Shown here: piece by piece, positions 27,475 to 34,352 of the stretch | Numbering within the stretch: the stretch's first letter is position 1 | Layout of the letters: the number at the start of each line of letters is the position of its first letter | Assembly: GCF_030013595.1 (NCBI RefSeq) | Contig: NZ_CP122768.1 | Reading direction: 5' to 3' (one strand) | Source of the DNA: Escherichia coli | Lineage (GTDB): Bacteria > Pseudomonadota > Gammaproteobacteria > Enterobacterales > Enterobacteriaceae | Length of the DNA: 64,000 nucleotides | Translations under genes and position numbers: made by a program | The notes under the pieces: model-generated | Told to the model about the DNA's origin: nothing | The model's database searches: none | Seen by the model: only the letters and a program-made list of their open reading frames with translations

Positions 27475-33538
<6,064 letters not shown>

Positions 33539-33866
33539 TACTTACGCGCAGAAATCATTCTGCGGGTATTAAGTTACTTTCTTATAAATTAATACAGATT
33601 AATCCTGGTTATTTGCTTTATTTATCACCAGTCATCCGGTATAGTTCTTCATAATCTCTGCAAAATCATCGTGTTGTAATATTCCCTCATCACTCTCCAT
33701 CAAATTTTCTTTTTTCTCCATAATTGGCGCAAAAGTGTTTTTTACACTTTCATTGTTTTACTGTTGCTCTGATTAATTGACGCTAAAGTCAGTAAAGTTA
33801 ATCTCGTCAACACGGCACGCTACTTAAGAAAGCCGTAATAAATAACTGAAAGGAAGGATATAGAAT

Positions 33867-34352
33867 ATGCGTAAATTAACTGCACTGTTTGTTGCCTCTA
33901 CCCTGGCTCTTGGCGCGGCTAACCTGGCCCATGCCGCAGACACCACTACCGCAGCACCGGCTGACGCGAAGCCGATGATGCACCACAAAGGCAAGTTCGG
34001 TCCGCATCAGGACATGATGTTCAAAGACCTGAACCTGACCGACGCGCAGAAACAGCAGATCCGCGAAATCATGAAAGGCCAGCGTGACCAGATGAAACGT
34101 CCGCCGCTGGAAGAACGCCGCGCAATGCATGACATCATTGCCAGCGATACCTTCGATAAAGCAAAAGCTGAAGCGCAGATCGCAAAAATGGAAGAACAGC
34201 GCAAAGCTAACATGCTGGCGCACATGGAAACCCAGAACAAGATTTACAACATCCTGACGCCGGAACAGAAAAAGCAATTTAATGCTAATTTTGAGAAGCG
34301 TCTGACAGAACGTCCAGCGGCAAAAGGTAAAATGCCTGCAACTGCTGAATAA
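33867..34352 (+). CDS. spy: periplasmic ATP-independent chaperone Spy
   Basis: 161-aa ORF with signal peptide and LTDAQKQQIREIMKGQRDQM-type helices. Confidence 0.95.
   Translation: MRKLTALFVASTLALGAANLAHAADTTTAAPADAKPMMHHKGKFGPHQDMMFKDLNLTDAQKQQIREIMKGQRDQMKRPPLEERRAMHDIIASDTFDKAKAEAQIAKMEEQRKANMLAHMETQNKIYNILTPEQKKQFNANFEKRLTERPAAKGKMPATAE

Follow-up and report, generated by a model that had tools for sequence, protein, structure and literature searches.

CpxR- and BaeR-controlled promoters

Regulation of spy by CpxR and BaeR is textbook knowledge, and for years the spy promoter has served as a reporter and been studied by footprinting. The gene product, Spy, and CpxP are paralogues, each of them strongly induced by the Cpx system. 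The promoter examined here is thus an ordinary and heavily studied one, and its basic biology was already known.

The closest described site is the CpxR box of the cpxP/cpxR intergenic region, of the pattern GTAAA-N5-GTAAA, with a 5-bp spacer and a 10-bp period. In a motif table for Salmonella (PMC6361445, S2), all five boxes with two clear half-sites use the N5 spacing, and the 15-mer GTAAAACAACGTAAAG is given as the cpxRA motif. For cpxP, a passage of PMC9753035 citing Yamamoto & Ishihama 2006 counts three CpxR-P sites, of which one runs to five nucleotides beyond the start. BaeR sites are described by the consensus TTTTTCTCCATDATTGGC, from Nishino 2005 as quoted in PMC3799227 and PMC3915751, and by the nonamer TCTNCANAA, from Yamamoto 2008, likewise quoted second-hand.

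Expression and binding data are also available for spy. Under ethanol, spy shows a log2 fold change of -3.0 when cpxR is knocked out and of -5.8 when baeR is knocked out (PMC7657598), which bears out the dependence on both regulators that the initial annotation of this DNA had named. In the ChIP-exo data of the same study, obtained in MG1655, spy carries two BaeR peaks and no CpxR peak.

The spy locus and its TAAAGT repeat

The window, the 64-kb stretch of E. coli DNA that was analysed, contains the astE-spy intergenic region, which holds a short direct repeat. Here astE ends at 33538, and the spy coding sequence occupies 33867..34352 on the plus strand. ORF translation and the locus annotation agree on the 161-aa periplasmic chaperone Spy with its ATG at 33867, as had been proposed for the downstream gene. 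A 331-bp intergenic query matched 5423 of 5426 complete E. coli genomes, annotated upstream of spy. Alignment with E. coli K-12 MG1655 shows complete identity between 33763 and the spy ATG; upstream of 33763 the two sequences differ by four SNPs and a 1-bp indel in a T run.

The direct repeat TAAAG-tcag-TAAAG, annotated at about 33783-33800, is present within CGCTAAAGTCAGTAAAGTTAATC, which sequence inspection places at 33781-33803. Its true unit is the hexamer TAAAGT, which recurs with a 9-bp period (33784-33789 and 33793-33798). These copies begin 83 and 74 bp upstream of the spy ATG, and the annotated distance of "roughly 70 bp" suits the proximal one.

TAAAG-N4-TAAAG occurs once in the 64-kb window. 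Taken as a repeat, however, TAAAGT is not beyond chance, because 52% of dinucleotide shuffles of this AT-rich intergenic region (328 bp, 34% GC) contain some 6-mer repeated at an offset of 7-13; the real region contains four. The observation is therefore real and partly confirmed, but as a repeat it is without significance. What does exceed chance is conservation, and of the proximal TAAAGT copy only.

Conservation across the Enterobacteriaceae

Spy loci were collected from one genome per species, and the 260 bp upstream of the ATG were aligned. The resulting 79 sequences represent more than 20 genera, among them Escherichia, Citrobacter, Salmonella, Enterobacter, Klebsiella, Raoultella, Kosakonia, Phytobacter, Cedecea, Buttiauxella, Lelliottia, Yokenella, Siccibacter and Franconibacter. 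Throughout this set, conservation of the promoter is strong between the BaeR box and the beginning of the 5' UTR, with zero indels in the stretch 33769-33817.

The two copies of the hexamer differ sharply in this alignment. At the proximal copy (33793..33798, plus strand), the columns read T 100%, A 100%, A 99%, A 100%, G/C 90/10% and T 100%. TAAA[G/C]T is thus found in 78 of 79 sequences, a single genus has TATAGT, and free variation at 33793-33798, looked for in the 79 orthologous promoters, was not seen. The preceding base, G33792, which makes GTAAAGT in E. coli, is G in 82% of sequences, C in 11% and T in 6%. The distal copy (33784..33789, plus strand), just downstream of the sequence TTGACG, is poorly conserved, with T 84%, A 62%, A 91%, A 92% and G 47%. 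Compared with GTAAA it carries a mean of 1.7 mismatches, and several genera have lost the half-site altogether, with CTTCT, CTGGC, CACAA, AAGAA or CTGAA in its place. Already in the cryptic Escherichia clades and E. albertii it reads TAAAC, and the exact TAAAG-N4-TAAAG is retained in just 15 of the 79 sequences.

Within the repeat, then, only the proximal copy is under selection, with T-A-A-A-S-T fixed and the upstream G free to vary. As judged from these columns, that pattern suits a -10 hexamer better than a CpxR half-site. Since TTGACG and the block CGTCAACACG, which flank the repeat, are essentially invariant, the repeat would be embedded in the core promoter.

One entry in the collection of spy loci is unusual. 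The metagenome-assembled genome Citrobacter sp. HRGM_Genome_0066 has two spy loci, on DXKH01000113.1 and DXKH01000075.1. One is E. coli-like, with 99% Spy identity and a promoter of the E. coli pattern, and the other is Citrobacter-like, which suggests a mixed bin.

An upstream CpxR box and a geometry shared with cpxP

The principal candidate CpxR box of spy, GTAAAACAATGAAAG, lies at 33747..33761 on the minus strand, inverted relative to the gene and 22-37 bp upstream of the repeat. It has the canonical 5-bp spacer and matches 8/10 half-site bases. In the 79 sequences its ten half-site positions are 97-100% conserved, and both leading G residues are 100% conserved. By direct comparison, it is near-identical to the CpxR box of the cpxR-cpxP intergenic region, GTAAAACAACGTAAAG.

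A gapless alignment of the spy and cpxP promoters on this box reveals a common layout. The gap from the box to GTAAA[G/C]T is exactly 30 nt in both genes (GTAAAGT in spy, GTAAACT in cpxP), and TCGT begins 5 nt after that element in each. TAAAGT of spy and TAAACT of cpxP therefore occupy the same position relative to the CpxR box. Overall identity is 36/85 (shuffle p = 0.0006), part of which is supplied by anchoring on the box. By analogy, the shared 30-nt geometry suggests that the element is a -10 hexamer, which may at the same time be a weak auxiliary site for CpxR.

A third minus-strand GTAAA abuts the box at 33739-33748 (GTGTAAAAAA; TTTTTTACAC on the plus strand). It is well conserved, with its G present in 80% of sequences, and its distance of 6 bp from the GAAAG half-site does not give the phasing of a dimer site.

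The probable core promoter of spy

On balance, the repeat probably lies in the core of the stress-inducible sigma-70 spy promoter, with the proximal TAAAGT as its most likely -10 element and activation from the upstream boxes, and would not be the main response-regulator site. The assignments of the -10, the start and the protein bound at each site are our reading of the sequence and its conservation. Under this explanation, the proximal TAAAGT (33793-33798) would serve as the -10 hexamer and CTGAYT (33769-33774) as a weak -35. The distal copy (33784-33789) would be ordinary A/T-rich spacer in which the hexamer recurs by chance in E. coli. With TAAA[G/C]T as the -10, the first transcribed base would be the C/G of TCGT (about 33805/33806 in spy), which would put the centre of the CpxR box near -52. 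CpxR-P would bind GTAAAACAATGAAAG, the inverted and invariant box, with its centre some 52-57 bp upstream of the start.

Several features of the alignment bear on this assignment. TAAAGT has the TAnnnT form of a sigma-70 -10 element, and its T1, A2 and T6 are 100% conserved in the 79 sequences. The TATAGT of a single genus also speaks for a -10, since it is nearer to the -10 consensus and further from GTAAA. The candidate -35 lies 18 bp upstream of TAAAGT, at 33769..33774 on the plus strand, and reads CTGATT, or CTGACT in many genera. Its columns are conserved (C 92%, T 91%, G 95%, A 96%, T/C 53/42%, T 99%), and it matches the -35 consensus at 3-4/6 positions. The nearer-consensus TTGACG (33777..33782, plus strand; 5/6 to the -35 consensus, 78-79 of 79 at each position) stands just 10 bp from TAAAGT, a distance fixed in 79/79 sequences. 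A sigma-70 consensus scan of the region returned no promoter at its threshold.

TTGACG could instead pair, through a 16-bp spacer, with TAATCT at 33799..33804 on the plus strand. TAATCT would then be the -10 abutted by TAAAGT, and transcription would begin near 33811. With TAAAGT as the -10, TAATCT would be the discriminator instead. Either start, about 33805/6 or about 33811, falls in the block CGTCAACACG (33805..33814, plus strand; 94-100% per column), where the 5' UTR is expected to begin. This alternative core has the better -35, but its -10 lacks the critical T6 in 13/79 species. Position 2 of TAATCT is A in 91% (7/79 without A2) and position 6 is T in 84%, and GAATAG, AAATAG, TAATCC and TATTAA are among the variants. 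The conservation data thus favour TAAAGT over TAATCT as the putative -10. Against TAAAGT, the invariance of TTGACG 10 bp upstream has no explanation, and GTAAAGT is also a perfect extended CpxR half-site.

TTGACG and TAAAGT, both invariant and 10 bp apart, cannot both serve one sigma-70 promoter. Their coexistence points either to a pair of core promoters that overlap with an offset of about 6 bp, and that BaeR and CpxR perhaps use in different ways, or to the site of another factor. A comparison with the mdtA and acrD promoters, with TTGACG considered as part of a BaeR-specific architecture, gave no consistent geometry.

Possible CpxR binding at the core promoter

In a second reading, compatible with the -10 assignment, CpxR-P would bind with low affinity to the region, or at any rate to GTAAAGT, as an auxiliary site overlapping the core promoter. 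Such a site would modulate or limit transcription at high CpxR-P, or help to position RNA polymerase. Because a third CpxR-P site is reported for cpxP, reaching +5 (PMC9753035), a weak site over the equivalent region of spy is possible, and the geometry common to the two promoters points in the same direction. At cpxP, the ChIP-exo peak of CpxR (4105757-4105803) falls on GTAAACT and the start region, and not on the canonical box. Moreover, GTAAAGT equals the extended half-site of the cpxP box, and CTAAA-N4-GTAAA, at 9/10 bases, ranks 6th in the window once the N4 spacing is permitted.

Other evidence weakens this reading. The study that reports the cpxP peak gives no CpxR peak at spy (PMC7657598), the distal half-site is unconserved, and the 9-bp period departs from the canonical 10 bp of the N5 boxes in the Salmonella table. 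In addition, the G of the proximal GTAAA is 82% conserved, as opposed to 100% in the upstream box. Auxiliary CpxR-P binding, with either of the effects named, is accordingly a tentative proposal and rather unlikely.

A stricter version holds that GTAAA[G/C]T is doubly used in spy and cpxP, as -10 hexamer and as CpxR half-site, 30 nt from the main box; this is doubtful. If it were true, CpxR-P bound at the upstream box would bring in polymerase, and abundant CpxR-P would contend with sigma-70 for the -10. The Cpx response would then have a built-in limiter.

The repeat as a proposed activator site

The initial annotation had likened the repeat to GTAAA-N5-GTAAA with a spacing 1 bp shorter. The spacing is correctly described. 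CTAAA (33783-33787) and GTAAA (33792-33796) are two GTAAA-like pentamers in direct orientation, separated by 4 bp and matching 9/10 half-site bases. In the canonical N5 register, the sequence reads GCTAA-AGTCA-GTAAA and matches 8/10. As a CpxR motif the repeat is mediocre, and the score of 9/10 needs the non-canonical 4-bp spacer. A search of the window for GTAAA-N5-GTAAA at <=2 mismatches gives 81 matches, where 57.5 would be expected. A small weight matrix derived from the published Salmonella boxes was non-discriminating; in the N5 register it gave both spy candidates low scores, at ranks 59 and 195 in the window. Scanning for the motif recovers the repeat, but it also recovers the canonical-N5 box upstream at 33747-33761.

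It is very unlikely that the two TAAAG copies, with their unusual 4-bp spacer, bind a CpxR dimer and act as the functional activator site of spy. The likeness to GTAAA-N5-GTAAA and the Cpx regulation of spy speak for this reading. Against it stands a better candidate box upstream, with canonical spacing and invariant sequence, and the period of the repeat is 9 bp where that of GTAAA-N5-GTAAA is 10 bp. Only the proximal half is kept among the 79 sequences, and several genera lack the distal copy yet have the rest of the promoter. Even in the proximal half, G at 82% beside an invariant TAAA[G/C]T is a pattern better suited to a -10 hexamer. Position also argues against such a site. The repeat lies between TTGACG and the start region, which is unsuitable for an OmpR-family activator, and no usable -10/-35 hexamers follow it at the right distance. 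Relative to the start that we infer, it neither lies upstream of the -35 nor replaces it, as an activation-compatible site would.

The resemblance therefore holds for the proximal GTAAAGT, an extended CpxR half-site, and breaks down for the spacing, the distal half, the core-promoter position and the presence of a better box upstream. Taken together, the earlier interpretation is partly supported: it appears to have named the right regulon and a CpxR-like proximal copy, and to have been mostly wrong about the identity of the element. This judgement rests on comparative sequence evidence and on second-hand statements in the literature.

BaeR boxes and ChIP-exo peaks

The BaeR sites of this promoter lie elsewhere. 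The proximal BaeR box, TTTTTCTCCATAATTGGC (33711..33728, plus strand), matches TTTTTCTCCATDATTGGC with zero mismatches and contains TCTCCATAA at 33715-33723. This match is unique in the window and absent from shuffles, and the box is conserved across genera in spy upstream regions. Two distal nonamers, TCTTCATAA (33646-33654) and TCTGCAAAA (33657-33665), occupy 33646..33665 on the plus strand, so that the second-hand nonamer TCTNCANAA has three plus-strand matches upstream of spy (33646, 33657 and 33715). The distal-to-proximal nonamer spacing of ~70 bp recurs in Citrobacter, Enterobacter, Klebsiella and Buttiauxella. BaeR-P would bind the box at 33711-33728 together with the distal nonamers at 33646-33665. 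Within 33770-33866 no match to TTTTTCTCCATDATTGGC or TCTNCANAA was found, all matches being upstream, and the suggestion that the repeat might be a BaeR-type site is unsupported.

When the peak coordinates are carried over by the MG1655 alignment, BaeR peak_2 (1825823-1825843) falls at about 33650-33670, on the distal nonamers, and peak_1 (1825677-1825711) falls at 33781-33815, on the repeat and the start region. Because two different regulators, BaeR at spy and CpxR at cpxP, give like peaks on the core promoter, such core-region peaks suggest an RNA-polymerase-associated footprint or cross-links, and we do not count them as a sign that either regulator recognises the repeat. The weakest reading, that the repeat is a BaeR site or a chance repeat functionless in both copies, draws on peak_1 and on the frequency of short repeats in AT-rich DNA, and it is scarcely credible given that the repeat is unlike either BaeR motif, that polymerase cross-linking better explains the peak, and that a proximal copy invariant in 79 species is not functionless.

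The upstream start and the 5' UTR

A published start exists further upstream. Kim et al. 2012 (PMC3415461, supplement) list a spy start at NC_000913.2 1823864, with 152 reads, 215 nt upstream of the MG1655 ATG. It maps to window position 33653, 8 nt downstream of a TATAGT -10 at 33640-33645; among the spy starts listed there, only this upstream one appears and none in the inducible core region. The Cappable-seq supplement contains no start near spy. Literature searches by site sequences returned nothing relevant, and searches by promoter names or start-site mapping returned nothing. The block GGTATAGT-TCTTCATAA around the upstream start is conserved across genera. The start itself falls inside the distal BaeR nonamer and adjoins BaeR ChIP-exo peak_2, and BaeR binding at this nonamer might influence the 33653 promoter.

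The beginning of the 5' UTR contains a small conserved hairpin at 33812-33836. CGGC (33813-33816) pairs with GCCG (33832-33835), the stem can be extended by A33812-T33836, and the length of the loop differs between genera, from about 4 to about 30 nt. Compensatory G-C to A-U changes occur at one pair in 4/26 sequences and at another in 1/26. The hairpin may act as a 5'-terminal stabiliser.

The 5' UTR also contains a published CpxR motif call. An in-silico weight-matrix study (PMC6361445, S2/S3) gives GTAAAAATAACTGAA, 16 bp upstream of the ATG, as the motif of Salmonella spy. It corresponds to GTAATAAATAACTGA at 33835-33849 in the window, in the 5' UTR beside the ribosome-binding site, and this location led us to reject it as a CpxR activator site of spy. 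The call shows how unreliable motif-only assignment is for this promoter.

Implications for annotation and design

The importance of these findings is small, and their useful outcome is a corrected annotation, in which the repeat is no longer taken for the activator site. Function would instead reside in the upstream inverted CpxR box, the BaeR boxes and the invariant TAAAGT, which probably acts as the -10. Designers of stress biosensors based on spy or cpxP should leave the box-N30-TAAAsT geometry and the conserved bases of the 5'-UTR hairpin unaltered.

Comparison with known systems

Set beside the CpxR box of the cpxP/cpxR intergenic region, the spy repeat is likewise a direct repeat of A-rich pentamers at a Cpx-regulated gene. 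In its proximal GTAAAGT, the extended half-site of the cpxP box GTAAAACAACGTAAAGT recurs unchanged. Unlike that box, the spy repeat has a 4-bp spacer, an unconserved CTAAA as its distal half and a location in the core promoter, not upstream of the -35. In addition, spy has a separate, canonical and invariant CpxR box on the minus strand at 33747-33761. The BaeR boxes, of the TTTTTCTCCATDATTGGC and TCTNCANAA types, share the promoter with the repeat and are conserved across genera, yet they lie 55-140 bp upstream of it and have no sequence in common with it.

There is also a likeness to an activator-dependent sigma-70 promoter. TAAAGT has the critical A2 and T6 of the -10 consensus TATAAT, invariant in 79 species, a weak candidate -35 (CTGAYT) lies 18 bp upstream, and the activator boxes lie further upstream. 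It differs in that TAAAGT matches TATAAT at just 4/6 positions and in the invariant, near-consensus TTGACG 10 bp away, a distance at which the two are unable to pair. The third CpxR-P site of cpxP offers the last parallel, as GTAAA[G/C]T likewise stands 30 nt downstream of the main box, over the putative -10 and start, and is followed by TCGT. The spy counterpart is known from its sequence, whereas the cpxP site is known from the second-hand statement in PMC9753035.
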